64,000 bases of DNA from Frankiaceae bacterium (GCA_025929315.1 JAICMI010000003.1:132-64131); one strand, 5' to 3'. Positions 4,277 through 33,421 are shown, counted from the stretch's first letter. The notes: generated by a model from the sequence alone, not told the origin. Program-made: numbers and translations.

Positions 4277-4279
4277 CCC

Positions 4280-9155: not shown

Positions 9156-9287
9156 TCAGGAGCGGTTTCGATACCAGCCCTCGGTCGGGTCCTGGGCCGT
9201 CGGCCTGGAATCCGCACCGAAGATCGGCGCCAGCACGGCGATCGCGATCAGGATCCCCACCGCCACTGCCAGCCCCAACGCGCTCAT
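9156..9287 (-). CDS. Small single-TM protein (43 aa), hypothetical
   Basis: Hand-translated: MSALGLAVAVGILIAIAVLAPIFGADSRPTAQDPTEGWYRNRS. Too short for the ORF track. Its ATG overlaps the TGA of the upstream small ORF (ATGA at 9284-9287). It ends 21 nt upstream of the DMT gene start. Confidence 0.45.
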   Translation of the reverse strand: MSALGLAVAVGILIAIAVLAPIFGADSRPTAQDPTEGWYRNRS

Positions 9288-9493: not shown

Positions 9494-9577
9494 CGCGATC
9501 ACCTCCACACGCAACCCTGCGGCACGAGGCCCGATCGCACGAGTGGCTCTATTGACACTGTCCGTAAGATTAGTGCC

Positions 9578-10555: not shown

Positions 10556-10568
10556 AAGGACCGCGCAG

Positions 10569-13015: not shown

Positions 13016-13024
13016 GCCCGGACT

Positions 13025-14143: not shown

Positions 14144-14245
14144 GACGCTCCGGGGAATGAGCGCTTTTGCGTCGATTGGCAGTATGGCACCAATGTCACG
14201 ATCTGTAATCACTTGAATGCCCGCTGTGGTGCGTGACAATGCGTC

Positions 14246-15322: not shown

Positions 15323-15374
15323 CCCGTCGACCTCCCTGGCGATTCGCCCGTATTCGTGGTGCATTGTTAGGGCT

Positions 15375-17236: not shown

Positions 17237-19428
17237 GCGGCTACGGGTTGACCGTTCCGCCGTCGTTCAGCAGCGCGGTGGATCGCGTCACCGCACTGGC
17301 CAGCAGTGACCGGCGAGCCGCTCTTTACGGCCGCCGGGCGCTGCTGTCGCTCGCCTTCGTGTTCGCGGTCGACAAGGTTTTCGGACTGACGCCGTTCTTG
17401 TTCGTCAACGGGCTCGCTCTCGGCGCGCTCTACGGCATCATCGGCGTGGCCCTGGTGCTCACCTATCGCACCAGCCGCATCATCAACTTCGCCGCGGCCG
17501 CGGTAGGCGCCGTACCCGCCATCACAGCGGTGCTCTTGTCGACGGCCGACCACGTCAACTACTTGCTGACGATGCCGATCGCGATCATCGGCGGTCTGCT
17601 CAGCGGCGCGCTCACCGAGATCTTCGTACTGCGTCGGTTCAGGACTGCGTCTCGGCTGATCGTCACCGTGGTGTCGATCGGCATTGCGCAGTCCTTCGCG
17701 GCTCTCGGGTTCTTCATCCCGGTGTGGTTCGGCGAGAGGGCGACCGGGGTGCCCAAGGTGGCGACGCCTTGGCAGAACCTGCAGTACCACAACTCCCGCG
17801 GTGAGCCGATCCTGACCGGCAACCAGGTCTTCGCGTTTGCGATGGTGCTGCTGCTGACGTTCGGCCTGATGATCTTCCTGAAGCGCAGCCGGATGGGCAT
17901 TGCCCTGCGCGCGTCATCGGAGAACAGTGACCGAGCCGCGCTGCTCGGCGTACCGGTCAACCGCGTCAACACGATTGCCTGGGCGCTCGCGGGACTGATG
18001 TCGGCGATGGCGATCTTCGCGATCGCTCCTTTGTACGGCGTCCCCAGCGACGCGACGCTCGGCTACGACACGCTGCTCTACGGCCTCGCAGCCGCGGTCG
18101 TGGCCCGGATGGAGAACCTCGGCCTCGCCCTGCTGATGGGCCTGGGCATCGGCCTGCTCATCGACACATCCGTCGCCCACACCGGGACCAACGACATCGC
18201 GCAAGCGTTGATGCTGCCGGTGATTCTCGTATCACTGCTCACACAACGGCGATCACGATCACGAGCAGTCGACGCCAACGCGTCGAGCTGGCAGACCATC
18301 AGCGTCTTCCGGCCGATTCCGCTGGAGCTGCGCGCGCTGCCCGAGGTGCAGCGCATGCGCATGGCCCTTTTCGCCGTCACTGCGGGCGTTGCGATCGGGC
18401 TGCCTTACTTCGTGAGCGACGCCACGATGCCCGGCCTGCAGATCCTGCCGATCATCGGCCTCATCGCGGTCTCGCTGGTCATCCTCACCGGCTGGGCCGG
18501 GCAGATCAGTCTCGGGCAGTACGGGCTGGTCGGCATCGGCGCTGCCGCAGCCGGCGGCCTGATCGGGCGGCACAACATCGACTTCTTCGCCGCTATCGGC
18601 ATCGGGATCGCTGCCGGCGCGATCACCGCCGTGATCATCGGCCTGCCGGCCGTCCGGATGCAGGGTCTCTACCTGGCGGTGACCACGCTCGCGTTCGGTT
18701 ACGCGATGCAGTTCTACGTTCTCAACAGTCACTACTGGATCGGGCGGCATCTGCTGCCGGACCAGCTGGCGGCGAGCATCCGCCGGCCGATGCTCTACGG
18801 CAAGTTCGCACTCGAAGGCAGCCGTGGTGGCGAACGCGCCTTCTACTTCCTGTGTCTCGGTTTTCTGGTGCTCGGACTCGCCGCTGCGGCGTCGTTCCGT
18901 CGTCAGCACAGCGGACGCATGCTCATCGCGCTCCGGGACAACCAACGGGCGGCGTCGTCCTACGCGATCGCACCGGTCCGGACCCGACTGTCCGCCTTCG
19001 CCATCTCGGGAGGTTTCGCAGGTTGCGCCGGCGTGCTGTTCGCCTACCAACAGCACCAGGTGCTGCCCGGGACCTACGACGTCTACAGCGCGATCGCGTT
19101 GTTCCTGGCTGCAGCTGTCGGTGGCCTCGGGTCACTCGCGTTCGGCACGCTGTCGGTCGTCGCGTTCCAGGCGACGATCCTGTGGGGACCGATGGCCTGG
19201 CACCACCTCGGGAACACGTTCTCGTCGGTGGTCCCGTTGCTGCTGACGGGCCCGCTGCTCGTGCTCAACCTCTACGCCAACCCCGGCGGCCTGGCCGGAT
19301 GGGCGTTCGCCAAGCGCGACGACTGGCTGCGCGGGCTGGCGGACCGGCACAGGATTCACGTTCCCTCTCTCGTCGCCGACAGCCTCGTCGAGGAAACCCG
19401 CATGCCCGAACCGGAGCTGGCGAAGTGA
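17233..19428 (+). CDS. Branched-chain-amino-acid-type (HAAT) ABC permease, fused LivH-like + LivM-like halves
   Basis: 731 aa. N-terminal half: LALGALYGIIGVALVLTYRTSRIINFA. C-terminal half: SLVILTGWAGQISLGQYGLVGIGAAAAG. Confidence 0.9.
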   Translation: MSGYGLTVPPSFSSAVDRVTALASSDRRAALYGRRALLSLAFVFAVDKVFGLTPFLFVNGLALGALYGIIGVALVLTYRTSRIINFAAAAVGAVPAITAVLLSTADHVNYLLTMPIAIIGGLLSGALTEIFVLRRFRTASRLIVTVVSIGIAQSFAALGFFIPVWFGERATGVPKVATPWQNLQYHNSRGEPILTGNQVFAFAMVLLLTFGLMIFLKRSRMGIALRASSENSDRAALLGVPVNRVNTIAWALAGLMSAMAIFAIAPLYGVPSDATLGYDTLLYGLAAAVVARMENLGLALLMGLGIGLLIDTSVAHTGTNDIAQALMLPVILVSLLTQRRSRSRAVDANASSWQTISVFRPIPLELRALPEVQRMRMALFAVTAGVAIGLPYFVSDATMPGLQILPIIGLIAVSLVILTGWAGQISLGQYGLVGIGAAAAGGLIGRHNIDFFAAIGIGIAAGAITAVIIGLPAVRMQGLYLAVTTLAFGYAMQFYVLNSHYWIGRHLLPDQLAASIRRPMLYGKFALEGSRGGERAFYFLCLGFLVLGLAAAASFRRQHSGRMLIALRDNQRAASSYAIAPVRTRLSAFAISGGFAGCAGVLFAYQQHQVLPGTYDVYSAIALFLAAAVGGLGSLAFGTLSVVAFQATILWGPMAWHHLGNTFSSVVPLLLTGPLLVLNLYANPGGLAGWAFAKRDDWLRGLADRHRIHVPSLVADSLVEETRMPEPELAK

Positions 19429-21047
19429 GCGCATTGTTGACGTGTCGCGGAGTCGACGTCGCCTACGACAAGGTGCAGGTGCTGTTCGGCGTCGACCTCG
19501 ACGTGCACGAAGGCGAGATCGTCGCACTGCTCGGCACCAACGGCGCGGGCAAGTCGACGATGCTCAAGGCGATCTCGGGCCTCGTGCAACCCATTGCGGG
19601 ACACATCGAGTTCGACGGGCGAGACATCACCAAGTGCACGCCGCAGGAGACAACCGCGCTGGGCATCGTGCAAGTACCGGGCGGCAAGGCCGTCTTCCCG
19701 ACGTTGACCGTCGCGGAGCACTTCAAGGCCGGGTGCTGGCTCTATGCGAAGCAGTCCAACGACGAGGTGGCGCAGCGCACCGCCAAGGTCATCGAGATGT
19801 TCCCGCGGCTGCAGGAACGCTGGAACCAGCTGGCGGGCGACCTGTCCGGCGGCGAGCAGCAGCAGCTCGCACTCGGCATGGCGTTCGTCGCGCGGCCGCG
19901 GCTTCTCGTCATCGACGAGCTGTCGCTGGGTCTCGCTCCGGTCATCGTCGAGCGGTTGCTCGACGCCGTACGCGCTATTCATGCCGAAGGTGCGACGGTC
20001 GTTCTCGTCGAGCAGTCGGTCAACGTCGCACTGACCATTGCCACGCGCGCCTACTTCATGGAGAAGGGCCAGGTGCGGTTCGAGGGCCCGACTACGGATC
20101 TCCTCGCCCGGGACGATGTCCTGCGTTCGGTGTTCCTCGCCCGTGCCAACCACAGTCTTGACAGCAAGAGCAAGAACGGCCAGGCCCGCACTCGCTCGCG
20201 CGCCAGGAAAGCTGCCGAGACAGTGGCCCGGCCGGAGGCGCTGGCGGTGCGCCACCTCAGTCACACCTTCGGCGGCATCTCCGCGGTCAACCAGGTGACC
20301 TTCTCGGTCCACGCCGGCGAGATCCTCGGGCTGATCGGACCGAACGGCGCCGGCAAGACCACGATCTTCGACATCATCTCGGGCCATCTGCCGACGCAGC
20401 GCGGTCACATCGTCCTGGGTGACAAGGACATCAGTCACTGGGCGCCGGAACGACGCGCCGCGGCGGGTCTCGGGCGCTCATTCCAGGACGCGCGCATCTT
20501 CCCGTCGCTGACCGTCGCCGAGAACATCGCGCTGGGACTTGAACGACACATCGCCGTGCGCGACCACGTGTCGGCGTTGTTCGGCACCCCCGCCATCCGC
20601 GAGTCCGAGATGGACGTTGCCTTCACCGTGGGCGACTTGATCGAGCTGATGGGGCTGGGTGCGTTCCGCGACAAGTTCGTCGCCGAGCTCTCGACGGGCT
20701 CGCGCCGCATCGTCGACCTGGCGATGTCGATCGCACACGACCCGGCCGTGCTGCTGCTCGATGAGCCGTCCAGCGGCATCGCACAGAAGGAGACCGAGGC
20801 GCTCGGTCCGTTGCTGCAGCGCATTCGCGAGGAGACGGGTTGCGCGATGCTCGTCATCGAGCACGACATGCCGCTCATCACCTCGCTGTCGGACTCGATC
20901 GTCGCGCTCGACCTCGGCGCCGTACTCGTTCAAGGGCCGCCGGAACGCGTGCTCGCGGACGAACGGGTGGTCACCGCCTACCTGGGCGGCGATCCCGCAA
21001 CGATCCGGCGCAGCACCGCACGTGAAGCAGAAAAGGTGGGGGCCTGA
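19425..21047 (+). CDS. ABC ATPase, two fused cassettes (LivF-like then LivG-like)
   Basis: 540 aa from GTG 19425 (GTGA overlap with the permease stop). Two Walker A motifs (GTNGAGKST, GPNGAGKTT), two LSGGEQQ/LSTGSRR signatures and two Walker B motifs are present. The ORF-track ORF 18852..21047 has a spurious N-terminal part. Confidence 0.9.
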   Translation: MSALLTCRGVDVAYDKVQVLFGVDLDVHEGEIVALLGTNGAGKSTMLKAISGLVQPIAGHIEFDGRDITKCTPQETTALGIVQVPGGKAVFPTLTVAEHFKAGCWLYAKQSNDEVAQRTAKVIEMFPRLQERWNQLAGDLSGGEQQQLALGMAFVARPRLLVIDELSLGLAPVIVERLLDAVRAIHAEGATVVLVEQSVNVALTIATRAYFMEKGQVRFEGPTTDLLARDDVLRSVFLARANHSLDSKSKNGQARTRSRARKAAETVARPEALAVRHLSHTFGGISAVNQVTFSVHAGEILGLIGPNGAGKTTIFDIISGHLPTQRGHIVLGDKDISHWAPERRAAAGLGRSFQDARIFPSLTVAENIALGLERHIAVRDHVSALFGTPAIRESEMDVAFTVGDLIELMGLGAFRDKFVAELSTGSRRIVDLAMSIAHDPAVLLLDEPSSGIAQKETEALGPLLQRIREETGCAMLVIEHDMPLITSLSDSIVALDLGAVLVQGPPERVLADERVVTAYLGGDPATIRRSTAREAEKVGA

Positions 21048-22198
21048 TGAGCGACGGACGACACCGCGCGCCACGCACGCGGCTTAATGTTCTGCAGCGC
21101 ATAGGGGCAGCAGCGGTTCTGCTCGGCGCCGGCGGCTTGGGCGCGGCGATGTGGCCGACGGCGGCCGCCGCGGACGCGCCGGTGCAGACCGCTTGGTACA
21201 ACGCGTTGTCCGGTGGCGGTCAAGCTGTCCCCGACCCGGCGACCCCGGCCGGCGGCTTGCACGTCTCGGTTGCCTCCGGACAGGTCCTCGCCTTCGCGGC
21301 GATGCAGTACGCCCTCGCCGAAGGCTCGACGGCCACCATCGAGCTCAAGATCAGCAACCTCACCGCGACGCCCGTCATCAACCCGACCTCGCCGACCACC
21401 GACCCCGCCGCCTACGTCGTTGCCTGTCCGATCAGCGGCACGTGGACGGCCGGGGACGACCAGCCGATGGACGCGGCGCCGAAGTACGACTGCACTCGCT
21501 CGATTCCCGGCAACCTGTCCTCCGACCAGACGACGTTGACCTTCCTCGCGGACGCCTCGATCGAAACCCTGCCGGGTCAGCTCAGTCTCGCGATCGTGCC
21601 TGTTGTCACCGATGAGATCCCCGGTGTCGGGACGCCGGCCCCGGCGGACACCACCCAGCCGTTCTCGCTCGACGTCGCCAAGCCGGATGCCTCATCGCTG
21701 ATCGTCACGGGCACATCGGCCCTGCCACCACCACCGGCGCCGCCGAAGACGGCCACGACGGGCGCCACGTCCACGGCGACGAAGGGATCGGCCGCCGGTG
21801 CCGGTGCAAGCAGCGGGTCGTCGAGCGTCAACCTTCCGGGCTCGCTGACCAGCAACTCGGCGTCGACGTCGACGGACGCCGGCACGAGCCCGGTCGTCGC
21901 GCCGACCAACCAGGCGCCGGCGGCCGCCCCGGCCGCCGCGACGTCATCCACGAACGACCGTGCGCACAACGTGGCACTCGCGATGCTCCTGCTGATCGGC
22001 ATCGGCGTCGTCGGGATGAGCAGCGGTCAGATGCAGCGAGCGCCGCGGCTGCTCGGCGGCGCGGGGCGTCACGCCGCAATGACCACCGGTGCAGCCGCAG
22101 CGGCAACGGCCGCTGCAGTTCCGGTGGGCGTCTACGGCAACCGAGGCCTCGGCCGCTTCAACAAACCCCGCACCGAACCCGCCCGCCCCCTCACCTGA
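21047..22198 (+). CDS. Secreted, C-terminally membrane-anchored Ala/Pro/Ser/Thr-rich protein, unknown function (cassette 1, component 4)
   Basis: 383 aa. Signal-like N-terminus (AAAVLLGAGGLGAAMWPTAAAADA), then a conserved globular region (AWYN, VVAC), a low-complexity tract, a TM helix (VALAMLLLIGIGVVGMS) and a basic tail (RGLGRFNKPR). Paralogue of 23852..24943. Its start overlaps the ATPase stop by 1 nt. Confidence 0.7.
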   Translation: MSDGRHRAPRTRLNVLQRIGAAAVLLGAGGLGAAMWPTAAAADAPVQTAWYNALSGGGQAVPDPATPAGGLHVSVASGQVLAFAAMQYALAEGSTATIELKISNLTATPVINPTSPTTDPAAYVVACPISGTWTAGDDQPMDAAPKYDCTRSIPGNLSSDQTTLTFLADASIETLPGQLSLAIVPVVTDEIPGVGTPAPADTTQPFSLDVAKPDASSLIVTGTSALPPPPAPPKTATTGATSTATKGSAAGAGASSGSSSVNLPGSLTSNSASTSTDAGTSPVVAPTNQAPAAAPAAATSSTNDRAHNVALAMLLLIGIGVVGMSSGQMQRAPRLLGGAGRHAAMTTGAAAAATAAAVPVGVYGNRGLGRFNKPRTEPARPLT

Positions 22199-22270: not shown

Positions 22271-23842
22271 CTAGAGGTGGGTACGGAGGGTTTTGCGGTC
22301 GAGCTTGAAGACGCTGGTGAGTGGCAGTGCGTCGACGATGCGGACGTCGCGCGGGTACTTGGCCGCGGACAGCCGTCCCTTGGCGTAGGTGACGATCTCG
22401 TCCGACGTCAGGGTTGCGCCCGGCCGCAGCTGCACGAACGCGACGACCTCCTCGCCCATCCGCGAGTCGGGCTTGCCGACCACGCCGGCGCCGACGATGT
22501 CGGGGTGCTCGACGAGTGCGTCCTCCACATCACGCGGATAGACGTTGATGCCGCCGCGGATGATGAGGTCCTTGATGCGGTCGACGACGTACAAGTAGCC
22601 GTCCTCGTCGAACCTGCCGACGTCGCCGGTGTGGAACCAGCCGTCGCGGATGGCCTCGGCGGTCGCGTCCGGTGACTTCCAGTAGCCGGTCATGATGTTG
22701 GGCCCCCGTGCGCAGATCTCACCGTCCTCGCCCGGCGCCGCCTCGGTGCCGTCGGCCTTAACGAGCTTGAGCTCACACAGCGGCAGCGGCTTGCCGACAC
22801 TTCCGATGCGCGACTCGCCGGGCCGGTTGGCCGCGAGCGAACCACCGGTCTCGGTGCAGCCGTAGCCCTCGGTGATCTCGACCTGGGGCAACCGCTTCTG
22901 GATCTCCTCGGCGATCTCCGGGGAAAGCGGGCCGCCGCCGCTGCCGAGCCGGGTCAGCGACGACAGGTCGTAGTCCTCGAGCGGCTGCGCGAGCAGCATC
23001 TGGATCATCGACGGCACCAGCGCACTCGCGTGGATCTGATGCTTCTGCGTGAGCTCGAGGAAGCCAACCGGGTCGAACCAGCGCATCATCACCGTCGTTC
23101 CGGCCTCGGTCGCATGCGCGCCGGCGACGGTGAGCATCAGGCCGTAGACGTGGGACAACGGCAGCGGTAGCAACCCGCGCGACGACGGTTCTCGCTCGGT
23201 CTCCTTGCCCGATGCGGTCAACTGCCACGCGGCCGCTGACAGCGAGTCGTGACTCAACATCACGCCCTTGGATCGGCCGGTCGTGCCGCCGGTGTACATC
23301 AGAGCCGCGAGCTCAGTCGGGTCGCAGTCGACCAGCTCTCCCTCGGGTGCCTGCTCCAGCTCAGCGAGGTCGAGCATCGGGATGCTCGTGCCGGCGGCGG
23401 CCTGGCCGACTCCACCCGGCGCGTCCCCGACAACGATCCCGCGCAATGTCGGGACGCCGGCCGCGGAAGCGATCACCTTGGGCAGGAAGTCGGGCGTTGT
23501 CACGATGTACGACGCCTCGCTGTCGACGAGCACGTGCCGCAGTTCGTCCTCACTGAGCAGGAAGAGCACCGGGGTGGTGACCCCACCCGCCCGCCACACC
23601 GCGCTGTAGGTCAGCCCGACCTCGGGGCAGTTGGCCATGCACACGACGACACGCTCGCCCGGCGCGAGACCGGCGTCGCGAAAACCCTGCGACAACCGGC
23701 GGGTGCGCTCGGCGAGCTGCAGGCCCGTGAACGACTGATCCTCGAAGTAGAGCCGAGACTCCGCACCGTTGCGCTCGGCCGCGCGCTCACCGAGCACCTG
23801 AAGGCTCGTGCCGGTCGGGTTCGTGATCATCTCGGTCGTCAT
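22271..23842 (-). CDS. AMP-dependent acyl-CoA synthetase/ligase (FadD-like)
   Basis: 523 aa. AMP-binding motifs LMYTGGTTGRSKGV, TEGYGCTETG, GWFHTGDVG and DRIKDLIIRGGINV are present. It starts 9 nt downstream of the preceding gene on the same strand. Confidence 0.9.
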   Translation of the reverse strand: MTTEMITNPTGTSLQVLGERAAERNGAESRLYFEDQSFTGLQLAERTRRLSQGFRDAGLAPGERVVVCMANCPEVGLTYSAVWRAGGVTTPVLFLLSEDELRHVLVDSEASYIVTTPDFLPKVIASAAGVPTLRGIVVGDAPGGVGQAAAGTSIPMLDLAELEQAPEGELVDCDPTELAALMYTGGTTGRSKGVMLSHDSLSAAAWQLTASGKETEREPSSRGLLPLPLSHVYGLMLTVAGAHATEAGTTVMMRWFDPVGFLELTQKHQIHASALVPSMIQMLLAQPLEDYDLSSLTRLGSGGGPLSPEIAEEIQKRLPQVEITEGYGCTETGGSLAANRPGESRIGSVGKPLPLCELKLVKADGTEAAPGEDGEICARGPNIMTGYWKSPDATAEAIRDGWFHTGDVGRFDEDGYLYVVDRIKDLIIRGGINVYPRDVEDALVEHPDIVGAGVVGKPDSRMGEEVVAFVQLRPGATLTSDEIVTYAKGRLSAAKYPRDVRIVDALPLTSVFKLDRKTLRTHL

Positions 23843-23851: not shown

Positions 23852-24943
23852 TTACAGATGCGGAGCGGGGCCAACGCGTTCGCGGCGAAAGCGTCCCACT
23901 CCGCCCGAGCCTGCCGCGGCAGCGCCCCGGCCACTGCTGCCACGGTCGGGTGCGCGCAGCCTGCCACCTGCGAGTGCGGTCGCCGCTGTCGCGGGCGCCG
24001 CGACGGGCGCGCGGTTGCGCATCAGCAACGCGTAACCCAGGACCTCGGCCGCGATGACGATAAAGGCGATGATCCGGCGGTCGCCAGTGCTGAGGCCGGA
24101 CGACGTCGTCGCTGCCGCCGGCTGTGCAGCAATCGGCTGACCGGACTGGTCCCCTGCGACCACAGGCGCTACATCGGTCGTGGGTGACGTCGTCGTACCA
24201 CTGCCGGGCAGCGCACCTGACACAGCCGAGGGTGGATTGGCAACGGCGGTGCCGCCGACGGGAGCAGTGCCTGAGCTGCCCGCACCGCCACCAACGGGCG
24301 TGGAACCGGTTCCGGCGCCGAACGATGGTGCAGCCGCGCCGACGCCGCCGCTGTCCTTGACCGCCAACGTGCTGTCGTTCGGTGGCTTGAACACCACCCG
24401 GTCGACCGGGCCGGGCAGGAGCACCACTTGGAGCTTGTTGTGCAGCACCAGCTTGGCAACATCGCTGAAAACGACGTCAGTGCCTTTGAGCTTGCCGGGC
24501 ACGCAGGCGTTGCCGTCGTAGGGCGGTACATGTGACCACGGCCCGTTGTCGTCGGAGGTGAACGTCTCGGTTGCCCGGCACGCGACCACGGAGACCTGCG
24601 GCGGCGCCGTCCCGTCGATCGCGAGGGTCAGGGCGCCGACGAGTGACGACGGCGGCAGCTCGAATGAGACTCCCGCAACCGCCTGACTGCCCGCGGGCGC
24701 CGTACCCAGCACGCTGGGGATCGGTGCCGGGTTGGAGCCCTGCACCAGCAGGTCGCCTTGCTTGACGTCCGGCGGTGCCGGTGGCACCGGCGCGGGATCA
24801 CCGAGGTTGGCCGCGTTCCACCATGCGCTGACGTCCGGTGCCTGAGCCACCACCGGTGACGGCGCGATGAACATGACAGCCGCCACCGTGCTCGACGACA
24901 GGAGACCGAGCGCGACAAAGCGACGGGCGAGCTTCGACCTCAT
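23852..24943 (-). CDS. Secreted, C-terminally membrane-anchored protein, unknown function (cassette 2, component 4)
   Basis: 363 aa. Signal-like N-terminus (FVALGLLSSSTVAAVMFIAPSPVVAQA), then AWWN and VVAC motifs, a Gly/Ala/Thr/Ser-rich tract, a TM helix (IIAFIVIAAEVLGYALLM) and a basic tail (GGVGRFRRER). ATGA overlap with the ATPase gene. Confidence 0.7.
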   Translation of the reverse strand: MRSKLARRFVALGLLSSSTVAAVMFIAPSPVVAQAPDVSAWWNAANLGDPAPVPPAPPDVKQGDLLVQGSNPAPIPSVLGTAPAGSQAVAGVSFELPPSSLVGALTLAIDGTAPPQVSVVACRATETFTSDDNGPWSHVPPYDGNACVPGKLKGTDVVFSDVAKLVLHNKLQVVLLPGPVDRVVFKPPNDSTLAVKDSGGVGAAAPSFGAGTGSTPVGGGAGSSGTAPVGGTAVANPPSAVSGALPGSGTTTSPTTDVAPVVAGDQSGQPIAAQPAAATTSSGLSTGDRRIIAFIVIAAEVLGYALLMRNRAPVAAPATAATALAGGRLRAPDRGSSGRGAAAAGSGGVGRFRRERVGPAPHL

Positions 24944-27852
24944 GTGCTCACCTTCGCAGTCCCCGACCGTTCGATCGCCGACCGGTCGGTCCCCAGGTAA
25001 GAACCCACCACGAGCGGATCCTCGAGCACCTTGTCAGGCGGGCCGGAGCAGATGACACGCCCTTGGTCGAGTGCCATCAGTCGGTCCGAGATCGACGAGA
25101 TCAACGGCATGTCGTGCTCGATGACCAGCAACGCGCAACCGGTCTCGTCACGGATCTGCCGCAGCAACGGGCCGAGTGCCTCGGTCTCGCGCTGGGCGAT
25201 GCCACTGGACGGTTCGTCGAGGATGAGTACGGCGGGGTCATGCGCGAGCGCCATCGCGATGTCGACGACTCGACGCGATCCGGTCGACAGCTCACTCACA
25301 AACTTGTCACGGAACGCGCCCAGACCCATGAGATCGACCAGGTCCGCGACGGACCAGGCGATGTCGTCCTCCTGCTCGCGCGCCGCGGGAAGACCGAGCG
25401 CACATGCGGCATGGTCACGAATCGTAAGGTGTCGCTCGAGCGCAGTGGCCAGGTTCTCGGCGACCGTGAGCGACGCGAAGATGCGCGCGTCCTGGAACGA
25501 CCGACCCAGACCCATGCGAGCGCGCGCATCCGGCGGCAGGTCGGTCACGTCGTAGTCGCCGAGCAGCACCTGTCCCCGCGTGGGCGCCTGGAAACCGGAA
25601 AGGACGTCGAACAACGTCGTCTTGCCGGCCCCGTTGGGCCCGATCAGCCCGAGGATCTCTTTGTCAGTGACCGCGACGTCGACCTCGTCGAGTGCTCGGA
25701 TCCCGCCGAACGTGACCGAGACGGCCTTGGCCTCGAGCAGCTTGGGTCGTTCGAGGTCGGCGATCGCCTCCTTCGTACGACGAGTGCGTGTCGTCGCCTT
25801 CGCTCTGGGCGCGGACTTCTTCGTGGCGCCGGCCAGGAAGATCGAGCGCATGACGTCATCGCGGTTGAGGAGATCGGCGGTGGGGCCGGAGAACCGCACC
25901 TCCCCCTTCTCGAGGAAGTAGGCGCGGTCCGCGACGGTCAGCGCGACGTTGACCGACTGCTCGACGAGCACGACGGTCGTGCCCTGGGCGTTGATCTCGC
26001 GCACGGTGTCGAGCAGCTGCTCCACGATCGTCGGTGCGAGACCGAGCGAGAGCTCGTCGATGAGCAACAGTCGTGGCTTGGTGATGAATGCCATGCCGAG
26101 GGCGAGCATCTGCTGCTCGCCGCCGGAGAGGTTGCCCGCGAGCTGACCGCGGCGTTCGCGCAACCGCGGGAAGCGCGTCAGCACGCCGTCGATCTCGCGC
26201 TGCGCGGTGGCCTTGTCGGTGATCAGCCAGGAGGCGACCTCGAAGTGCTCGTCGACGGTCAGGGTCGGGAACACACCCTTGCCGCCGGGCATCTGTGCGA
26301 TCCCGTGCTTGGCCGATGTCACGGCGTCGGCATGTGTCACGTCGACGCCGTCGAACAGCACCACACCACCGGTCGGGTCGACCAGGCCTGTGATCGCCTT
26401 GAGCAGCGTCGACTTGCCGGCCCCGTTGGTGCCGAGGAGAGCGACGATCTCGCCGCGGTGCACTTCGAAGTCCACCCCGAACAGGACCTGCACGCCGTCG
26501 TAAGCGACGGTCACGCCCTGGCAGTGCAGCAGGATGTCGTCCTGCGCACCGTCGAGCCGCTGCTGGCGCACCTTGGTGATGAACGCGAGCGAGTCGAGCG
26601 CCGCCTGTGCATCACGGCCCACAAATCGGCTCGCGGTTGCGAGGATCGTGCCGCCGATGATCCAGAACGGCGCAGTCGCGCCAAAACCGATCCGGATGCC
26701 GTGGTCGTCGGCAATGGACGAGACCGGAAGGATGATGAACAGCACCCACACGCCGGCCACCAGGAACAAGAACGACCAGGCGAATGACAACGACCGCACC
26801 CGGGCCGGAGAGACGAACGCTTGAGTCATGAAGAACGGCGGTGTGAACATGCCGCCGACGAACGATGCGAGCAGCGTCATCACGACAGCCGAGGCAAGGT
26901 TGGGCATCGCGCACAGGACGGGGATGAGGATCCCGACACCGACAAGTGAGATCCCAGCCCACTTGATCGGCTCACCGAGACTGCGCCGCACCAGAACCTG
27001 CGTCCACCTGCCGGACACCAGGATGCCGGCAAACGCTGCGGCACCGTTTGCGGCAACGACGATGCCGCGACCCAGCTCCCCGAGCCCGAAAGCGTCGTGA
27101 AGCAGGATCGGCACATAGAAGGCGAGCGGGATGAAGCCCGCGCCGATGAAGAAGAACGCGCTGAACTGCCGCTTGAGCGTGGGTACGGCGAAGAGCGTCC
27201 GCCGCGCCTCTCCGAACGGAATCGGGGCCTCCCGCGCCGCCACCTCCGCAGCAGTCGGGTCGTCCGTCTCACCGCGCATCGGTTCGCGCAACCGGAGACT
27301 AACGAGGGCGGTGATCAGGATCGGGACGATGAGGACCATGAAGGCAACGCGCCAGCTGGTCTGCCACGCGACCACACCGGCGACGGCCGGCCCGGCGATG
27401 TAGGCGGCTCGCTCGGAGAACCGATGCACGGTGTAGACGGCGGGTCGGTCCTTCGGCAGGTAGTAGTCCGACAGCAGCGACGAGTGGATCGGGTCGTTGA
27501 CGACGCGGCCGATGCCGTTGCCGAGTCGGAAGAAGACCAGAGCGACCAGCCCGTAGGCGAAACCGGTGAGGAAGGAGAACAGGCCCGCGAGGAGCGCGCC
27601 GATCGTCACGAACCACTTACGTGGCAAGCGGTCGCCGTAGTAGCCGAGCGGGACCGCCGCCAGCAGCACCACTGACAGGTTGGCGATGACCAGGATGCCG
27701 AAGGCCCGGTCGGTCAGATGGAACGCGGCCTGGATGTTGGGCGCCAGGACGGCGAACGCGGCGCTGTCCCACTCGTCGAAGAAGAACAGCAGCGACAGGA
27801 TCATGAGCGGGAACAGCGGCAGCCCGCTGGTCAACCGCCGCAACCCGTTCAC
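24940..27852 (-). CDS. Tripartite fusion: 12-TM MFS-like domain + LivF-like + LivG-like ABC ATPase cassettes
   Basis: Single uninterrupted 970-aa ORF. Residues 1 to about 430 carry about 12 hydrophobic helices with MFS-like motifs (GYYGDRLPRKW, FFRLGNGIG). From about residue 445 come two full ABC cassettes (GTNGAGKST ... LSGGEQQ; GPNGAGKTT ... LSTGSRR). GTGA overlap with the permease stop. Confidence 0.85.
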   Translation of the reverse strand: MNGLRRLTSGLPLFPLMILSLLFFFDEWDSAAFAVLAPNIQAAFHLTDRAFGILVIANLSVVLLAAVPLGYYGDRLPRKWFVTIGALLAGLFSFLTGFAYGLVALVFFRLGNGIGRVVNDPIHSSLLSDYYLPKDRPAVYTVHRFSERAAYIAGPAVAGVVAWQTSWRVAFMVLIVPILITALVSLRLREPMRGETDDPTAAEVAAREAPIPFGEARRTLFAVPTLKRQFSAFFFIGAGFIPLAFYVPILLHDAFGLGELGRGIVVAANGAAAFAGILVSGRWTQVLVRRSLGEPIKWAGISLVGVGILIPVLCAMPNLASAVVMTLLASFVGGMFTPPFFMTQAFVSPARVRSLSFAWSFLFLVAGVWVLFIILPVSSIADDHGIRIGFGATAPFWIIGGTILATASRFVGRDAQAALDSLAFITKVRQQRLDGAQDDILLHCQGVTVAYDGVQVLFGVDFEVHRGEIVALLGTNGAGKSTLLKAITGLVDPTGGVVLFDGVDVTHADAVTSAKHGIAQMPGGKGVFPTLTVDEHFEVASWLITDKATAQREIDGVLTRFPRLRERRGQLAGNLSGGEQQMLALGMAFITKPRLLLIDELSLGLAPTIVEQLLDTVREINAQGTTVVLVEQSVNVALTVADRAYFLEKGEVRFSGPTADLLNRDDVMRSIFLAGATKKSAPRAKATTRTRRTKEAIADLERPKLLEAKAVSVTFGGIRALDEVDVAVTDKEILGLIGPNGAGKTTLFDVLSGFQAPTRGQVLLGDYDVTDLPPDARARMGLGRSFQDARIFASLTVAENLATALERHLTIRDHAACALGLPAAREQEDDIAWSVADLVDLMGLGAFRDKFVSELSTGSRRVVDIAMALAHDPAVLILDEPSSGIAQRETEALGPLLRQIRDETGCALLVIEHDMPLISSISDRLMALDQGRVICSGPPDKVLEDPLVVGSYLGTDRSAIERSGTAKVST

Positions 27853-30074
27853 AACTTGCTCCCGGTTGTGCTGCTCACCCGGCGCGACTCGGTCGCGACG
27901 CCCACCTTCTTGACGTGGTCGGCAGCCGAGCGCAGCACGGCCTGGTCGGCCGACTCGTCGTGCTCGGCATCGACCCGCGAGTCGGCGACGAGGCTTGGCA
28001 CATGGATGCCGTGTCGGGCCGCGAGCCAGCGTAGGAGGCCGTCGCGCGCCTGCTGGGCGGCTTGCGCGAGACCACCAGGGAACACCAACAGCACGATGGA
28101 GACACCGACACCGCTGGCCAGGACGCTCAGCTTTGCGTTGCCGAAATAGCCGATGGCGGTCAGGCCGATCGTGCCGAGCACCGCGCCCGGCAGCGACGTG
28201 AGCCCGCCGACGACGGCATACAAGAACGCGATGAGGCTGATGTCCATCGTGAAGCTCCCAGGGTCGACCTGGGACTGGTAGGCCGAGAGCGCACCGGCCA
28301 GAGCGGCGATGGCGCCGGCGATCGCGAACGCGGACAGACGCGTCACTGTCGCATCGACGCCGAACGCCTGCGCCGCCCGTTGGTTGTCACGCAGCCCGAT
28401 GAAGAGGCGGCCGGACCGGCTGTGACGCAACGACCACGCCGACAGGCAACAGAGCACCAGCATGATGAGACAGAAGTAGTAGAACCGCGTGTCCGACGTG
28501 AGGTCGATGCGGCCGTACAGCATCGGTTTGGTGACGTAGCTGCCGTCCGGCGGCAACAGCCAGCCGAACCGCTCGCGGCTCAGTCCGGCATATTGCACAG
28601 CAGCACCGAAACCCAGGGTGACCACCGCGAGGAACAGACCGGGCACGCGCAGCGCGGGGATGCCGATCAGCACGGCGACGACAGCCCCGGCGACGATCGC
28701 GGCGGCGAGCGTGACGAAGAAGTCCTGGTGGTTGCGCGTCGCCAGCCCGCCTGCCACAGCGGCACCCACGCCGGCGAAGGCGTACTGCCCGAGCGAGATC
28801 TGACCGGCCCAGCCCGAGAGGACCACCAGCGACACCGCGACCATGCCAGCGATCGCCGCCTGCGTACAGAACGCGGCCCGGGACGTGCCCACGATGTAGG
28901 GCGCAGCCAACCCAAGGGCGCCGAGCAGTCCGAGCGCGCCGTAACGAGCACGGTGGATCTCGCGAAGGTGGCGCAGCTCGAGCGGAATGGGCCGGAACTC
29001 CTGCAGCGCCTTGAACGACGCCACGCCGGTGTCGAAGGCGCGTGACATCCGTCGCCGCTGGAAGAGCAACGCCGCGAGGATCACCGGCAGCATGAGGGCG
29101 GCAGCGTCGTCAGGTCGGCTCGAGCCCGCAAACGCGGCCTGCTGGATCATGCCGACGCCGATGCCCGCCGCGAACGCGACCGGCAGGCTCTCCATCCGCG
29201 CGACGACGGCAGCCGCCAGGCCGTAGAGCAGCACCAGCGGCGACACGCTGCCGCCCGCGGGCACCGAGGTCACCGGGGCCTGCAAGTAGACCGCCACGCC
29301 GGAACAAATGCCGGCCAACACCCAGACGATCGTCGACAGCCGGGCGACGGGCACACCGAGCAGCGACGCCCGGTCCGCGTTCTCGGCCGACGCGCGGATG
29401 GCGATGCCGGCGCGGGTGTAGCGCAGGAATGCGGCCAGCCCGGTGCAGATCACGGCCGTCGCGACGACGATCGCGAAGTAGTCGCCGTTGAAGATGATGC
29501 CGCCGATCGTCACCTTGAAGTTGGTGTAGGGCGTCGGGAAGTTGAAGGGCAGGCCCGGCTGACCGCCGATCCACCGCGGCAGGTTGAGCTCGAGGTAGAC
29601 GAAGATCTGCGCGAGACCGATCGTGAACACCGTCGCGATCAGCCGCGGCGAGTTGGTGAACCGACGCATGACCAGCTCGACGACACCCCCGACCAGCGCC
29701 GAGCCGACGAGCATCACCGCGACCGACACCGGATAAGGCCAGTTGCGGTTGGTCACCAGCAAGAGCGCCGTGACAGCAGGGACAAGGCCAAGTCCGGCGT
29801 GGGCAAAGTTGATGATGCGGTTGGCGCGGTAGACGAGGATCAGCCCGAACGCAAGCAATGCGTAGAGCATGCCGAGGATCGCGCCGTTGATGAGGATGCC
29901 GAGCGAGACACCTGTCGGCAGCGGGATGCCGAGTGGGTGTGAGTACTGGGACCGGCCGAACATGAGCTCGAGCAGGAGTGCAAGAGCAAGCGGCCACGCG
30001 ACGTGGATGCTCGCGGTACGCAGCCACCTCGGCACCGTGACGCCGCCGGGCAGCGCCGGAACTAGTGTTGTCAC
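27849..30074 (-). CDS. HAAT-type ABC permease, fused LivH-like + LivM-like halves
   Basis: 741 aa from GTG 30074 (VTTLVPALPGG...), 2 nt after the upstream stop. Contains AILGMLYALLAFGLILVYRANRIINFA and SLVVLSGWAGQISLGQYAFAGVGAAVAG. The ORF-track start at 30290 lies inside the upstream gene. Confidence 0.9.
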   Translation of the reverse strand: MTTLVPALPGGVTVPRWLRTASIHVAWPLALALLLELMFGRSQYSHPLGIPLPTGVSLGILINGAILGMLYALLAFGLILVYRANRIINFAHAGLGLVPAVTALLLVTNRNWPYPVSVAVMLVGSALVGGVVELVMRRFTNSPRLIATVFTIGLAQIFVYLELNLPRWIGGQPGLPFNFPTPYTNFKVTIGGIIFNGDYFAIVVATAVICTGLAAFLRYTRAGIAIRASAENADRASLLGVPVARLSTIVWVLAGICSGVAVYLQAPVTSVPAGGSVSPLVLLYGLAAAVVARMESLPVAFAAGIGVGMIQQAAFAGSSRPDDAAALMLPVILAALLFQRRRMSRAFDTGVASFKALQEFRPIPLELRHLREIHRARYGALGLLGALGLAAPYIVGTSRAAFCTQAAIAGMVAVSLVVLSGWAGQISLGQYAFAGVGAAVAGGLATRNHQDFFVTLAAAIVAGAVVAVLIGIPALRVPGLFLAVVTLGFGAAVQYAGLSRERFGWLLPPDGSYVTKPMLYGRIDLTSDTRFYYFCLIMLVLCCLSAWSLRHSRSGRLFIGLRDNQRAAQAFGVDATVTRLSAFAIAGAIAALAGALSAYQSQVDPGSFTMDISLIAFLYAVVGGLTSLPGAVLGTIGLTAIGYFGNAKLSVLASGVGVSIVLLVFPGGLAQAAQQARDGLLRWLAARHGIHVPSLVADSRVDAEHDESADQAVLRSAADHVKKVGVATESRRVSSTTGSKL

Positions 30075-30076: not shown

Positions 30077-31780
30077 TCAGACCGAGGGGGGCATGTTCGG
30101 CTCGCCCTTGGGGATCTGGTTGACCTGGTAGCGCCGGCCGCCGTTCAGCGGCACGTAGGCGCCGTTGCGCCCGTTGGTCGTCGACTTCCTGCTGGTGCTG
30201 TAGTAGACCTCGCGGATGTCGGAGATCCCGGTGTAGTCGTTCTTGCCGAACTTGACGTAAAACAGCGACGGGTCGTGCCACTTGGCCCACTCGTCATATC
30301 CCGGCGTGGTGAGCATGCCGTATTCATACGTCAGCGGCGTCAGCTTGGGACCGGCCGCCATGATGCCGCCGGACAGCGTGAGGAAGTAGGTCGTCAACAG
30401 GTTGGCGTTGGCGTTGGGGTTACCGGACTTGCCCTCGGCCTTCCAGATCCTGCCTGCGTCGGTCTGACCGATGGGCTTCGTCGTACCGAGGTCCGACGGC
30501 CCGAACGCGTGCGCCCACTCCGACTGGTCGTAGGTCTGCGCCAGCGCGTCGTAGTCGAGCAGGCCGCCACCGGCGATGACGTTCTCCGGGTACCAGTTCT
30601 GCGACGCTGCTGCTTTAGTCCCGTACGCCGGGGCTATGGGGTCGGCCATCCACAGTGCCGTTGTGGCACCGGCGGCCTTGTACTTCGACACGTTGGTCGT
30701 CGACTGCTGCGCCGCTGTCGCCGTGTTGGACGAGTAGGGACCGTCGACGACTGCACTTGAACCGGCACAGCCCTTGATGATGCTTTCGAGGTGGTGCGCT
30801 GCCGGCGTCGTTGTCGCAGTGTCCGGGTAGATGACCACGACCTTGCGCGTCTTGGTCTTGAGCGACGCCTGACCCGCGAACCGCGCCGGCTTGCCGGCCA
30901 ACCGGTTGCAGTACCACGTGCCCGTGATCTGGGCCTGGGTGTCGCCGCCCATGAACAGGTCGTAGTGGTAGGGCCGCAGGCTGTCGTCGAACGAGTCGGA
31001 GAAGCCCCAGCCGCCCCAGTTGACGACGCCCTTGCGCGACAGCTCATCGTGGAACGCCGGCTCGTTCGTGTTGCTCGCGTAGAACAACGCGAACGGGTGG
31101 TAGTTGGAGACGAGGCTGTCGGCATCGCTGCGGAAGCACGAGTCGACGGGCGGTGCGATGTCGCAGTTGCCGTGAACGTAGATCGGCACGATCTTGCGGC
31201 CATAGAGCTGGTAGTGCTTGTTGATCCAGTCGGCCACCAGCAGGAACTGCTGCTTCTCCGCGTCCGGCGGGGTGTAAGTACCTGTCTCTCGCAGGATGGC
31301 GTCGACCGCCGCGTTGTCCTTCGGGCGATACATGATGACCTTGATCGTCGTGGAGGTCACACCGGCCCAGGTGGCGCCGCCGTTGTCCCCGCCCGCCCAG
31401 GTGGCGACGCACGGCGGGTGCTCGTTGAGGCCGGTGATGCAGAACGGCTTGCCGGTCGTCGTGCCGCTCGCCGGGGGTGCCACCCCGCGTTGCTTGGCGG
31501 CAGTGCCGCCGCTGGCGCCGACCGGCGTCGTACCGGTGGAACCGACCGAGCCCGGCGTGCTTGACGAGCCACCCGCGGCACCGGGCGTCGTCGCACCGGG
31601 TGCCGTCGCACCGGGAAGCGTCGGAGCGGACGACGACTGCGCGGCCGGCGAACCTCCGCTGAACTGACCGCCGATCGGTCCGTTGGCCGACGACCCACCC
31701 TTGGACGGGGCGACGACCACCAGCACGATCTGCGCCATCACGAGCAGAGCGAACGGCGCATATCGACGAAGTCCGGTCAC
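30077..31780 (-). CDS. Membrane-anchored, Cys-rich periplasmic-binding-protein-like protein (cassette 2, component 1)
   Basis: 567 aa, GTG start preceded by GGAGGG. An N-terminal helix (FALLVMAQIVLVVVAPS) is followed by about 100 aa of low-complexity linker. GVTSTTIKVIMY, INKHYQLYGRK and VVNWGGWGFSDSF align by eye with 15425..17236. Confidence 0.75.
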   Translation of the reverse strand: MTGLRRYAPFALLVMAQIVLVVVAPSKGGSSANGPIGGQFSGGSPAAQSSSAPTLPGATAPGATTPGAAGGSSSTPGSVGSTGTTPVGASGGTAAKQRGVAPPASGTTTGKPFCITGLNEHPPCVATWAGGDNGGATWAGVTSTTIKVIMYRPKDNAAVDAILRETGTYTPPDAEKQQFLLVADWINKHYQLYGRKIVPIYVHGNCDIAPPVDSCFRSDADSLVSNYHPFALFYASNTNEPAFHDELSRKGVVNWGGWGFSDSFDDSLRPYHYDLFMGGDTQAQITGTWYCNRLAGKPARFAGQASLKTKTRKVVVIYPDTATTTPAAHHLESIIKGCAGSSAVVDGPYSSNTATAAQQSTTNVSKYKAAGATTALWMADPIAPAYGTKAAASQNWYPENVIAGGGLLDYDALAQTYDQSEWAHAFGPSDLGTTKPIGQTDAGRIWKAEGKSGNPNANANLLTTYFLTLSGGIMAAGPKLTPLTYEYGMLTTPGYDEWAKWHDPSLFYVKFGKNDYTGISDIREVYYSTSRKSTTNGRNGAYVPLNGGRRYQVNQIPKGEPNMPPSV

Positions 31781-31802: not shown

Positions 31803-32405
31803 TCAGAGCACGTTCAGCAAGTTGGACACGAGGGTGTAGATGGCCTGCTCGGTCTCCTCGACGGTGAAGCCGAGCTCCCCCCGCAGCGACTCCCAGGTGG
31901 ACCAGGTCGTGGCCACCTGCAGTGCTGCGAAGACCGATCGTCGCGACCCGGCCGGCTGCGCCGAGAGCTCGGACCCTACGACGCGTTCGAGCTGCTCGCG
32001 TGCTGCGTCCAGCAGCCGGTCCCGGTTGCGCCGGACCTGCGGTGAGAACGGCTCCTGCAGCCGCGCGGCCCGCCACACGGGCGCGAGGGCTTCGTACATC
32101 TGCCCGCGCTGTTCGACGAGCTGACGCAGGCGGTCAGGCAACGGGCCGCCGGCGTCGATCGGCGTGACGTAGCGCAGCGCGATCTCGTAGTCACGCTGGC
32201 CGGCCTCGATGAGCAGCGACTCCAGGTCGTTGAAGTGCTGCCAGACGGTACGAAGTGAGACGCCGGCGCGCTCGGCCACCCGCGGCGCCGTCGGCCGCAG
32301 GTCGCCGTCGTGGTGCAGGGAGCGGAGAGCGTCGACGATCGCCCGCCGAGTACGGGCGGATCGGGCGAGTCGCCCGTCCTGGAGCACAGCCTCCGTTGAC
32401 GCCAC
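31803..32405 (-). CDS. TetR/AcrR-family transcriptional regulator
   Basis: About 200 aa from GTG 32405 (VASTEAVLQDGRLARSARTRRAIVDAL...). HTH region: TAPRVAERAGVSLRTVWQHFNDLESL. It stops 22 nt before the binding-protein gene start. Confidence 0.85.
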   Translation of the reverse strand: MASTEAVLQDGRLARSARTRRAIVDALRSLHHDGDLRPTAPRVAERAGVSLRTVWQHFNDLESLLIEAGQRDYEIALRYVTPIDAGGPLPDRLRQLVEQRGQMYEALAPVWRAARLQEPFSPQVRRNRDRLLDAAREQLERVVGSELSAQPAGSRRSVFAALQVATTWSTWESLRGELGFTVEETEQAIYTLVSNLLNVL

Positions 32406-32414
32406 ATCCGCCTT

Positions 32415-32433
32415 ATAGCACTCTGCGTGCAAT
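32415..32433. promoter_or_regulatory. Candidate TetR operator (imperfect inverted repeat)
   Basis: ATAGCAC-TCTGC-GTGCAAT, with 6 of 7 positions complementary. It lies in the 86-bp divergent gap between the TetR start (32405) and the hydrolase start (32492). Confidence 0.3.
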
Positions 32434-32491
32434 CTTCGATACCGAGGTTGGGCGCACTCCCGCGTGCATCTGACCCTCTCGGGAGGCATCT

Positions 32492-33421
32492 ATGTCCTGG
32501 CCGGACACGGCTCGTTTGCGCTGGACCCCGACCCTCCGGGTCCCGTCCGACGACGGCACCGAGATCGCCGTCGAGATCCTCGGCGACGGGCATCCTGGAC
32601 CGACGCTCGTGCTGGCCCACGGCTGGACGTTCTCGAGCCGGTCGTGGCACTACCAGCGGATGCTGGCCGAGCGTTATCGCCTGGTGCTGATGGACCATCG
32701 CGACCACGGCGAGTCCGGCGCGGGGCCACGGGAGAACCGGACGGTCGACCAGATCGGGCGCGACCTCGCCGCCGTCCTCGACGCCACGTGCGAGAACAAG
32801 GACGTCGTGCTGGTCGGGCACTCGATGGGCGGCATGACCATCATGTCGCTCGCCGCGCAGCAGCCCGAGCGGTTCGGCAAGCAAGTAAAGGGCGTCGCGT
32901 TGCTCGACACGAGCGGACGGCGCGAGCCGGACAACCAGTTCGGGCTGCGCGGACCGCTGGCCAAGCTGTTCATCGGACAGTGGAAGTCCTCGCTCGCGTT
33001 GATGGTCTCGGATCCGGAGAAAGCCGAGCGGGCACGTCGCTCGGGGTCGGGCGTCTCCGTCGCGATCAGCAGGTTCCTCAACCTCGGCAAGGGCGCGGAC
33101 AAACGGCTCGCGAAGTTCACCGAGGCGATGTCCGCGCAGACCAAGGCGCAGGTCGTCGGCGACTTCTGGCTGACGCTCGACACGCACGACAAGATCGATG
33201 CATTGAAAGTCCTTGCCGACATCCCCACCCTCGTCCTCGTAGGCGACCGCGACCGGCTCACGCCGCCCGTCGACGCTCGCACTCTGGCCGCGGCAATTCC
33301 CGGTGCACGGCTGGTCGAGCTCCGTGGTGCCGGACACTGCGCGATGCTCGAGCAGCCGGAAGCGGTCAACGCCGCGATCCGTGACCTGGTCACACAGGTG
33401 GTTGCGGGGAGGAGCGCGTGA
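32492..33421 (+). CDS. Alpha/beta-fold hydrolase (putative esterase)
   Basis: 309 aa. Contains LVLAHGW, the nucleophile elbow VGHSMGG, and C-terminal GDRDRLTP ... GAGHCAMLEQPE. Confidence 0.9.
   Translation: MSWPDTARLRWTPTLRVPSDDGTEIAVEILGDGHPGPTLVLAHGWTFSSRSWHYQRMLAERYRLVLMDHRDHGESGAGPRENRTVDQIGRDLAAVLDATCENKDVVLVGHSMGGMTIMSLAAQQPERFGKQVKGVALLDTSGRREPDNQFGLRGPLAKLFIGQWKSSLALMVSDPEKAERARRSGSGVSVAISRFLNLGKGADKRLAKFTEAMSAQTKAQVVGDFWLTLDTHDKIDALKVLADIPTLVLVGDRDRLTPPVDARTLAAAIPGARLVELRGAGHCAMLEQPEAVNAAIRDLVTQVVAGRSA

Follow-up and report, generated by a model that had tools for sequence, protein, structure and literature searches.

An MFS carrier domain fused in frame to the ATPase cassettes of a Liv-type ABC importer in soil Actinomycetota

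In this study we describe a fused transport protein encoded in a window of 64,000 nucleotides from a Frankiaceae bacterium (GCA_025929315.1, JAICMI010000003.1:132-64131); the window is the whole stretch of DNA that was analysed, and positions are counted from its first letter. The gene at 24940-27852 encodes 970 amino acids (aa) and joins a complete major facilitator superfamily (MFS) carrier, with 12 transmembrane (TM) helices, in frame to both nucleotide-binding domains (NBDs) of a HAAT (Liv-type) importer belonging to the ATP-binding cassette (ABC) class. The fusion is genuine, conserved and selectively maintained, and it departs from the HAAT norm of soluble ATPase subunits.

A carrier domain and two ATPase cassettes in one reading frame

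The open reading frame (ORF) runs without interruption from 27852 to 24940. It had been reported as such in the initial annotation, where the strand was left unstated; the gene lies on the minus strand, and a plus-strand reading of 24940..27852 was ruled out by the many stops that riddle that frame. The gene overlaps its neighbours at both ends: its start codon, a GTG at 27852, shares bases with the stop of the permease gene upstream (GTGA), and its TGA stop shares bases with the ATG that opens the next gene (ATGA).

A sequencing or assembly indel could in principle have joined an MFS gene to an adjacent livFG gene. The window is a contig of the metagenome-assembled genome (MAG) type, and a related long-read contig (L015; related loci carry L numbers throughout) shows shifts of frame by which Liv and MFS genes are merged or split. 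However, the frame is open from the MFS part into both cassettes, across both junctions, in 11 independent contigs, which come from different samples (sources NCBI, ENA and JGI) and show 975-1358 codons from stop to stop. Because of this agreement an indel or assembly artefact does not account for the fusion; the stop or frameshift between the MFS and ATPase parts that had been considered in the initial annotation is found in none of these assemblies. The junction lies at nt ~26500-26600, as quoted there, and has no start codon with a convincing ribosome-binding site. As an internal start for a free LivFG protein we considered the sole in-frame GTG, at V428, and rejected it since a convincing Shine-Dalgarno sequence is missing. 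The same domain order was also found in other genomes: a search of 5.8 billion proteins delivered at least 120 homologues of full length that carry an identical set of Pfam domains (~970-1050 aa, 56-93% identity), hosted by Mycobacteriales, Frankiales, Jatrophihabitantaceae and Acidimicrobiales MAGs, that is, by two actinobacterial classes. With these results the artefact reading is effectively refuted.

The selective constraint was estimated from the ratio of non-synonymous to synonymous substitutions (dN/dS) between the window and its closest relative, L021. Values of 0.048 for the MFS domain, 0.062 for NBD1 and 0.079 for NBD2 were obtained, and the highest value among the segments (0.26) belongs to the linker between the NBDs. 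The MFS domain is therefore constrained by purifying selection as strongly as the catalytic ATPase domains. The protein is built of the following segments:

26632..27852, minus strand: MFS domain, aa 1-407; 12 TM helices, Spinster-like (Pfam MFS_1, helices of the AlphaFold2 (AF2) model, match to 6e8j)
26536..26631, minus strand: linker, aa 408-439; long helix 408-433 and a short loop (DSSP of the AF2 model; predicted local distance difference test (pLDDT) about 70-85)
25837..26535, minus strand: NBD1, aa 440-672, LivF/UrtE-type; Walker A GTNGAGKST, signature LSGGEQQ, Walker B LLLIDE
25744..25836, minus strand: inter-NBD linker, aa 673-703; basic and disordered, pLDDT <50 at 675-694
24940..25743, minus strand: NBD2, aa 704-970 and stop codon, LivG/UrtD-type; BCA_ABC_TP_C-like tail

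The N-terminal domain is a bona fide MFS_1 member (TC 2.A.1). The Pfam profile matches aa 19-363 over its positions 1-339 of 347 with 109 bits (E 3e-31), far above the cut-off of 33.4. The AF2 model, which was built with an alignment of 64 homologues (pLDDT 81, predicted template modelling score (pTM) 0.64), places 12 long TM helices at residues 14-406 (pLDDT 80-95), arranged in two halves with a charged loop at 188-223 between them. Both results agree with the complete, two-halved permease that had been proposed for the N-terminus. In the model a helix of 26 residues (408-433) follows, then NBD1 (440-672), a disordered basic stretch (675-694) and NBD2 (704-955). The first half of the linker, with V411 and D414, is a trait of the MFS family, D414 being conserved also in free MFS relatives, whose chains stop about 16 residues past TM12; the second half is specific for the fusion. 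From the basic N-terminus and the cytoplasmic location of the NBDs, both termini of the MFS domain are probably cytoplasmic.

Likewise, the proposal of two full cassettes in the order LivF, then LivG, is borne out by motifs and profiles. Two ABC_tran domains are detected by Pfam (199 bits), and the C-terminus matches BCA_ABC_TP_C weakly. In NBD1 the motif residues listed above are invariant in the 64 homologues; NBD2 carries Walker A GPNGAGKTT, signature LSTGSRR, Walker B LILDEP and H913. Among the NCBIfam models, cassette 1 (aa 442-669) is best matched by LivF/UrtE and cassette 2 (aa 705-955) by LivG/UrtD. This placement is at the family level only, as the cassettes do not reach the LivF and LivG equivalog cut-offs, and those of Urt are exceeded solely by whole-protein scores that sum both cassettes. 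When the model was searched with Foldseek, OppD/DppD of Mycobacterium tuberculosis were the top matches (E 4e-25 to 1e-22), and the ATPase half matched the LivF-like protein 1ji0 with a TMt of 0.90.

In the MFS domain D26 and D29 (TM1), D74, R75 and R78 (motif A), R109 (TM4), D129, Y131, R228, R262, G263, P349 and R353, together with D414 of the linker, are invariant in the 64 fusions. The TM1 signature reads D26-E27-x-D29, motif A in the TM2-TM3 loop reads G70-Y-Y-G-D74-R75-L-P-R78-K79, and the motif B arginine stands in R109-L-G-N-G-I-G. These positions are equally conserved in cluster representatives of free MFS proteins (56), MFS-LivF (23) and MFS-LivF-LivG (26). The best match among PDB sequences is 6e8j, a Spinster homologue from Hyphomonas (HnSpns; E 3e-9), followed by SPNS1, EfpA, EmrB and SPNS2. 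With the Spinster family (HnSpns, SPNS1, SPNS2; TC 2.A.1.49) the domain shares the aspartate of TM1 (D29, Asp41 in HnSpns), the arginine of TM4 (R109, Arg122) and a 'DYY(x)P' motif after TM4. It differs in that only the N-terminal half aligns significantly with 6e8j, and in carrying Arg116 at the position of HnSpns Glu129; its membership of the Spinster family is tentative. Asp41, Arg122 and Glu129 have been discussed as coupling sites in HnSpns. Because of the exchange at the Glu129 position, the coupling chemistry may differ from that of Spinster.

Gene context and recurrence of the association

The fusion gene belongs to an operon on the minus strand that is co-transcribed and translationally coupled; the whole locus is a complete binding-protein-dependent HAAT importer. 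The other genes of this operon, and a second operon without an MFS gene, are located as follows:

31803..32489, minus strand: probable regulator of the TetR family; leads the operon strand, lying 22 nt upstream of the binding-protein gene
30077..31780, minus strand: substrate-binding protein (SBP), 567 aa; N-terminal TM anchor, low-complexity linker, divergent LivJ-type fold (Peripla_BP_6, type-1 periplasmic binding protein (PBP))
27849..30074, minus strand: fused LivH-LivM permease (LivHM), 741 aa; GTG start at 30074 read from the sequence, two BPD_transp_2 stretches (E 6e-55)
23852..24943, minus strand: conserved single-pass membrane protein of 363 aa; its start and the ATPase stop overlap
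22271..23842, minus strand: gene of the acyl-CoA (fatty-acid-CoA) ligase family; 9 nt past the single-pass gene, AMP-binding and AMP-binding_C domains
15425..22198, plus strand: MFS-less paralogous operon with SBP (15425-17236), LivHM (17233-19428), LivF-LivG (19425-21047) and single-pass protein (21047-22198)

The 567-aa SBP itself gave no hit in Pfam and was missed by NCBIfam too, and the profile of its family found no meaningful match among PDB sequences. Six of its 28 homologues match Peripla_BP_6 (best E 2.3e-9). All top Foldseek matches of its AF2 model (pLDDT 86, pTM 0.84) are LivJ-like SBPs, the first being 4n03 (E 1e-13, TMt 0.70), which was deposited as the SBP of a fatty-acid ABC transporter of Thermomonospora curvata. 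According to the model the protein has the predicted LivJ fold, and it is such a binding protein that marks the system as an importer. The SBPs of the two operons (30077-31780, minus strand; 15425-17236, plus strand) are 31% identical to each other, and both are equipped with an N-terminal TM helix and a low-complexity linker of ~100 aa, not with a lipobox. Their divergence is such that both escape detection by Pfam and NCBIfam.

NCBIfam assigns the permease halves as UrtB/LivH-like and UrtC/LivM-like; the separate permease of 741 aa noted in the initial annotation is recovered if translation begins at the GTG at 30074. The TetR-like gene matches TetR_N weakly (E 1.5e-4, below the Pfam cut-off), as does its counterpart in L022, and it is kept upstream in L002, L003, L004 and L007. 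For the ligase, the best NCBIfam model is long-chain-fatty-acid-CoA ligase, with a score below the equivalog cut-offs; the gene holds the same position in L001, L002, L003, L007 and L022.

The 363-aa single-pass protein has no match in Pfam or NCBIfam. Homologues stand at the same position in L001-L007, L012 and L013, and a weak paralogue is encoded at 21047-22198. Both single-pass proteins of the window (23852-24943, minus strand; 21047-22198, plus strand) match no family and close their Liv operons, in each case with translational coupling to the ATPase gene. Either protein is composed of a signal peptide, an extracytoplasmic domain of ~170 aa with two cysteines, a linker rich in Pro, Ala, Ser and Thr, a single TM helix and a basic tail. 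It is probably a fifth subunit of this Liv subfamily that has gone unrecognised.

The paralogous LivF-LivG protein (19425-21047) is without an MFS domain according to Pfam, as had been described, and shares 63% identity across the ATPase part. The two operons are convergent, tail to tail, and flank the single acyl-CoA ligase gene; this synteny of the operon pair around the ligase is kept in the related MAGs L001 and L022. Outside the operons (9452-15364 and 32492-35945), a generic context of lipid or hydrophobic-compound catabolism was observed, with genes for an acyl-CoA dehydrogenase, an APH-like kinase with DUF6285, an EAL-domain protein, an alpha/beta hydrolase, a flavin (Baeyer-Villiger-type) monooxygenase and a zinc alcohol dehydrogenase.

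When the MFS part by itself served as query, an exhaustive HMMER search delivered 152 clusters (50% identity) at E<=1e-30. Typing of the best 150 of these with the domains of the window gave ~20 clusters of MFS-LivF-LivG, ~27 of MFS-LivF and ~45 of full-length free MFS proteins, plus fragments. The architecture had been called unusual: this holds in comparison with textbook type-I importers, but it is not unique, given at least 120 close homologues and a fusion to LivF or LivF-LivG in ~47 of the best 150 clusters.

Three gene arrangements were found in which MFS proteins of this clade accompany Liv genes. The module of SBP, LivHM, MFS-LivFG and single-pass protein is present in L001-L007, L012, L013 and L021-L023; it is kept down to 36% MFS identity and extends into the Acidimicrobiales. 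L009 and L016 encode LivHM, MFS-LivF and a separate LivG. In L010 and L011 the closest free MFS protein (48% identical) is encoded by the last gene of the operon, its start overlapping the stop of the binding-protein gene. There LivH, LivM, LivF and LivG form a single ORF of 1224 aa (2069-5743, plus strand, in L011; the same in L010), with a 158-aa ORF and the genes for the binding protein and the free MFS protein downstream of it, so that one polypeptide comprises the entire membrane and ATPase core of a HAAT importer. Because the same MFS clade is tied to Liv genes in three arrangements, its partnership with the Liv system is functional and not accidental, a 'Rosetta-stone' pattern that holds whichever partner the MFS is fused to. 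In a neighbour-joining tree of the MFS domains, which is star-like and poorly resolved, the architectures are intermixed; this suggests repeated fusion and fission, in a tree too unresolved for events to be counted.

Apparent fusions of the types 'LivH-LivM-MFS' (P0249), 'LivG-MFS' and 'LivM-MFS' were not accepted, as the inspected case, L015, shifts frame repeatedly. Here the apparent 940-aa P0249 protein (8001-13165) is located on a 2-Mb long-read contig with frame changes within LivM and MFS, and it probably reflects long-read indel noise and not a five-domain fusion.

More distant free members of the MFS family (about 33-35% identity) are encoded outside a Liv context. In L017 (3561-8287) the start of such a gene (about 35%) overlaps the stop of a 1147-aa POR+DUF6537 gene, which is indolepyruvate:ferredoxin oxidoreductase-like, and in L018 (2-3620) the upstream product is a cut ORF of 782 aa that ends 4 bases ahead of the MFS gene. 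Judging from the link in L017, that MFS branch may take a 2-oxoacid or an aryl acid as its substrate. In the distant MFS-LivFG locus L023 a DMFA2_C (dimethylformamidase-like) gene and an amidase gene (2634-4118 and 13272-14660) are found in place of the acyl-CoA ligase. Substrates may therefore differ between branches and may be amides in that of L023.

Possible roles of the MFS domain

Since dN/dS is ~0.05 and every family-invariant residue of cavity and gate is preserved, the MFS domain is apparently a working one. Among the roles that had been offered for it, a passive anchor is thus disfavoured, and a second translocation path and a regulatory function both remain. We propose that the 970-aa protein would act as the energising subunit of the importer, with the LivF-LivG heterodimer in one chain that bears a complete Spinster-like carrier at its N-terminus. 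The two NBDs would dock on and power LivHM and not the MFS domain, because all fused genes examined adjoin LivHM, and L011 has the NBDs fused to LivHM and the MFS protein free. As free relatives end ~16 residues past TM12, only ~20-30 mostly helical residues that are specific to the fusion would tether the domain to the first NBD1 strand. Such a short tether would keep the MFS domain within a few nanometres of LivHM, in one membrane complex of fixed 1:1 stoichiometry. The carrier would retain its own proton-coupled rocker-switch cycle and would offer a second entry or flip route, driven by the proton motive force, for the same class of amphipathic organic acids that the SBP route takes up. Both the ATP-driven, high-affinity SBP route and the MFS route would then feed the acyl-CoA ligase, which would trap the substrate. 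To an autonomous proton-driven carrier that serves as second entry or flip route into a ligase-trapped pathway, of which we infer direction and substrate, we assign a rough probability of 0.35.

The ligase in the operon, the fatty-acid SBP as top match of the binding protein and the solved MFS structures closest to the domain, which are lipid or amphiphile carriers (Spns, EfpA, EmrB), point weakly to an amphipathic carboxylic acid as substrate; weakly, because the Foldseek E-values of the SBP are nearly flat across fatty-acid, leucine, aromatic-acid and urea binders. Besides this flatness, several points weigh against a second entry route. The proximity of MFS and LivHM is suggested by the tether length only, and Arg116 replaces the HnSpns glutamate. 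The ligase is linked in the Mycobacteriales/Frankiales group only and not in the Acidimicrobiales and metagenome loci L006, L012 and L013. An importer of this type can do without the MFS domain, as is seen from the MFS-less operon with its otherwise equal set of genes. Finally, the distant free relatives in L014 and L020 adjoin genes of TetR regulators, a setting typical of efflux pumps.

This last point leads to a different reading, in which the ABC part imports and the tethered MFS carrier exports. The exported species could be an excess of a toxic amphipathic acid (a safety valve), a product set free from an imported conjugate, or a capture molecule that is secreted and comes back loaded via the SBP. 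The TetR-like gene that opens the operon and the exporters EmrB, EfpA and SPNS2 among the best solved matches would fit this, and the acidic residues of TM1 with the arginine of TM4 resemble, as we presume, those of drug/H+ antiporters such as MdfA. However, in actinobacteria TetR regulators are also found in control of operons for catabolism and uptake, the family consensus does not preserve the antiporter motif C (GPxxGG in TM5), and no conserved hydrolase gene or biosynthetic gene for a capture molecule belongs to the module in the loci examined. We regard such an import-export pair as possible, at odds of three to one against. Rather unlikely is a carrier fold that does not transport at all and works as a sensor or regulator (transceptor) gating the ATPases via the helical linker, or as a scaffold for assembly or targeting in the manner of the ABCC TMD0. 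For this one can cite the conserved long helix, which runs straight into the first strand of NBD1 and could transmit conformational changes, and the paralogous operon, where the importer type works without an MFS domain, as a modulatory add-on would predict; MFS transceptors and the chaperone-like MFS protein UNC93B1 are precedents (PMC8154325). On the other hand, the separate MFS protein in L010 and L011 indicates that a mechanical link is not needed for the role. The invariant residues are identical in free relatives from non-Liv contexts, which are presumed transporters, and preserved cavity charges and motif A together with a dN/dS of 0.05 would not be expected of a mere scaffold.

A direct cooperation of both parts is conceivable too: ATP-driven closure of the NBD dimer might gate or drive the rocker-switch via the helical linker, which would make the protein a hybrid primary/secondary transporter, or the MFS domain might capture a membrane-partitioned amphipathic substrate and hand it laterally to LivHM; we consider both improbable. 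Still more doubtful is an MFS domain energised by the NBDs themselves, that is, an ATP-driven MFS carrier or hybrid primary/secondary pump in which the NBDs serve the MFS domain alone or alternate between it and LivHM. The covalent 1:1 link of NBDs to the MFS C-terminus in many lineages speaks for it, and a precedent is ArsB, a secondary carrier that turns ATP-driven when ArsA binds. But each fused gene examined adjoins a LivHM permease that requires these NBDs, the arrangement in L011 leaves the MFS protein free of them, and residues of the proton-coupling type are kept; moreover, MFS proteins are not known to possess a coupling helix that fits the groove of the NBDs. A proton-driven carrier beside an ATP-driven importer stays our preferred reading.

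Relation to known transporters and significance

Among characterised systems, the LivJ/K-LivHMGF importer of E. coli and the Urt systems (HAAT, TC 3.A.1.4) resemble the locus in the BPD_transp_2 permease halves, the LivF/LivG cassettes, the BCA_ABC_TP_C-like tail and the LivJ-fold SBP. In the window, by comparison, LivH and LivM are fused, LivF and LivG are fused in the order F-then-G, the SBP is TM-anchored and beyond detection by Pfam, and an extra single-pass protein is present. The chief difference is the 12-TM MFS domain at the N-terminus of the ATPase chain; the cassette scores also stay under the LivF/LivG equivalog cut-offs. A urea transporter (UrtABCDE) was considered and rejected: the permease reaches 67 bits for UrtB (cut-off 250) and 73 bits for UrtC (cut-off 296), the UrtD/UrtE scores sum two cassettes, and the operon contains an acyl-CoA ligase gene and not urease genes. 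ATPase, permease and SBP are thus HAAT members at the family level and neither Liv nor Urt equivalogs.

Each half of the architecture has partial parallels. OppD/DppD of M. tuberculosis also carry both NBDs of an SBP-dependent type-I importer on one polypeptide; they are soluble proteins lacking a membrane domain, and their family is peptide/opine/nickel rather than HAAT. We know of no Spinster protein that is fused to ABC cassettes. ArsA-ArsB, in which a secondary-type membrane domain works with an ATPase, and the TMD0 of ABCC proteins, which adds a membrane domain to the N-terminus of an ABC protein, are conceptual analogues only and show no homology; ArsA is not an ABC ATPase, and TMD0 consists of five helices and is not a transporter fold. 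Closer in concept is LplT-Aas (lysophospholipid flippase and acyltransferase/acyl-ACP synthetase), where an MFS carrier is joined to cytoplasmic machinery of the same pathway and an AMP-binding enzyme acts downstream (PMC8154325); in the window, the partner is the ABC ATPase pair of another transporter and not an enzyme. In a review of 2021 on MFS structure and function, the fusions listed (LplT-Aas, transceptors, UNC93B1) are to domains of an enzymatic, regulatory or signalling kind, and ABC cassettes are not among them (PMC8154325).

In the full-text literature that was searched we found no description of an MFS-NBD fusion; TCDB may contain an entry. Public databases label the homologues automatically as 'MFS transporter', 'Liv ATPase/MFS permease' or 'branched-chain amino acid ATP-binding protein'. 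The first and last of these labels each cover half of the protein, and our analysis corrects the annotation of what is a widespread, conserved and apparently uncharacterised family of soil Actinomycetota.

The two largest transporter classes, ABC importers and MFS carriers, differ in their energy source and are regarded as machines that work independently; their fusion would surprise transport specialists. Our results suggest that here two transporter types are built into one machine. The maintained fusion and its recurrence as separate genes imply a stable ABC-MFS supercomplex in soil Actinomycetota. If this is true, it would provide a system for studying how ATP- and proton-driven transport are coordinated on one substrate pathway and for asking whether NBD motions regulate a secondary carrier; gating or driving of the MFS domain by the NBDs, or a lateral hand-off of substrate, would be a new mode of ABC-MFS cooperation. 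It would also give access to the cargo of a large uncharacterised branch of Liv-type systems, with its divergent anchored SBPs and its single-pass subunit.

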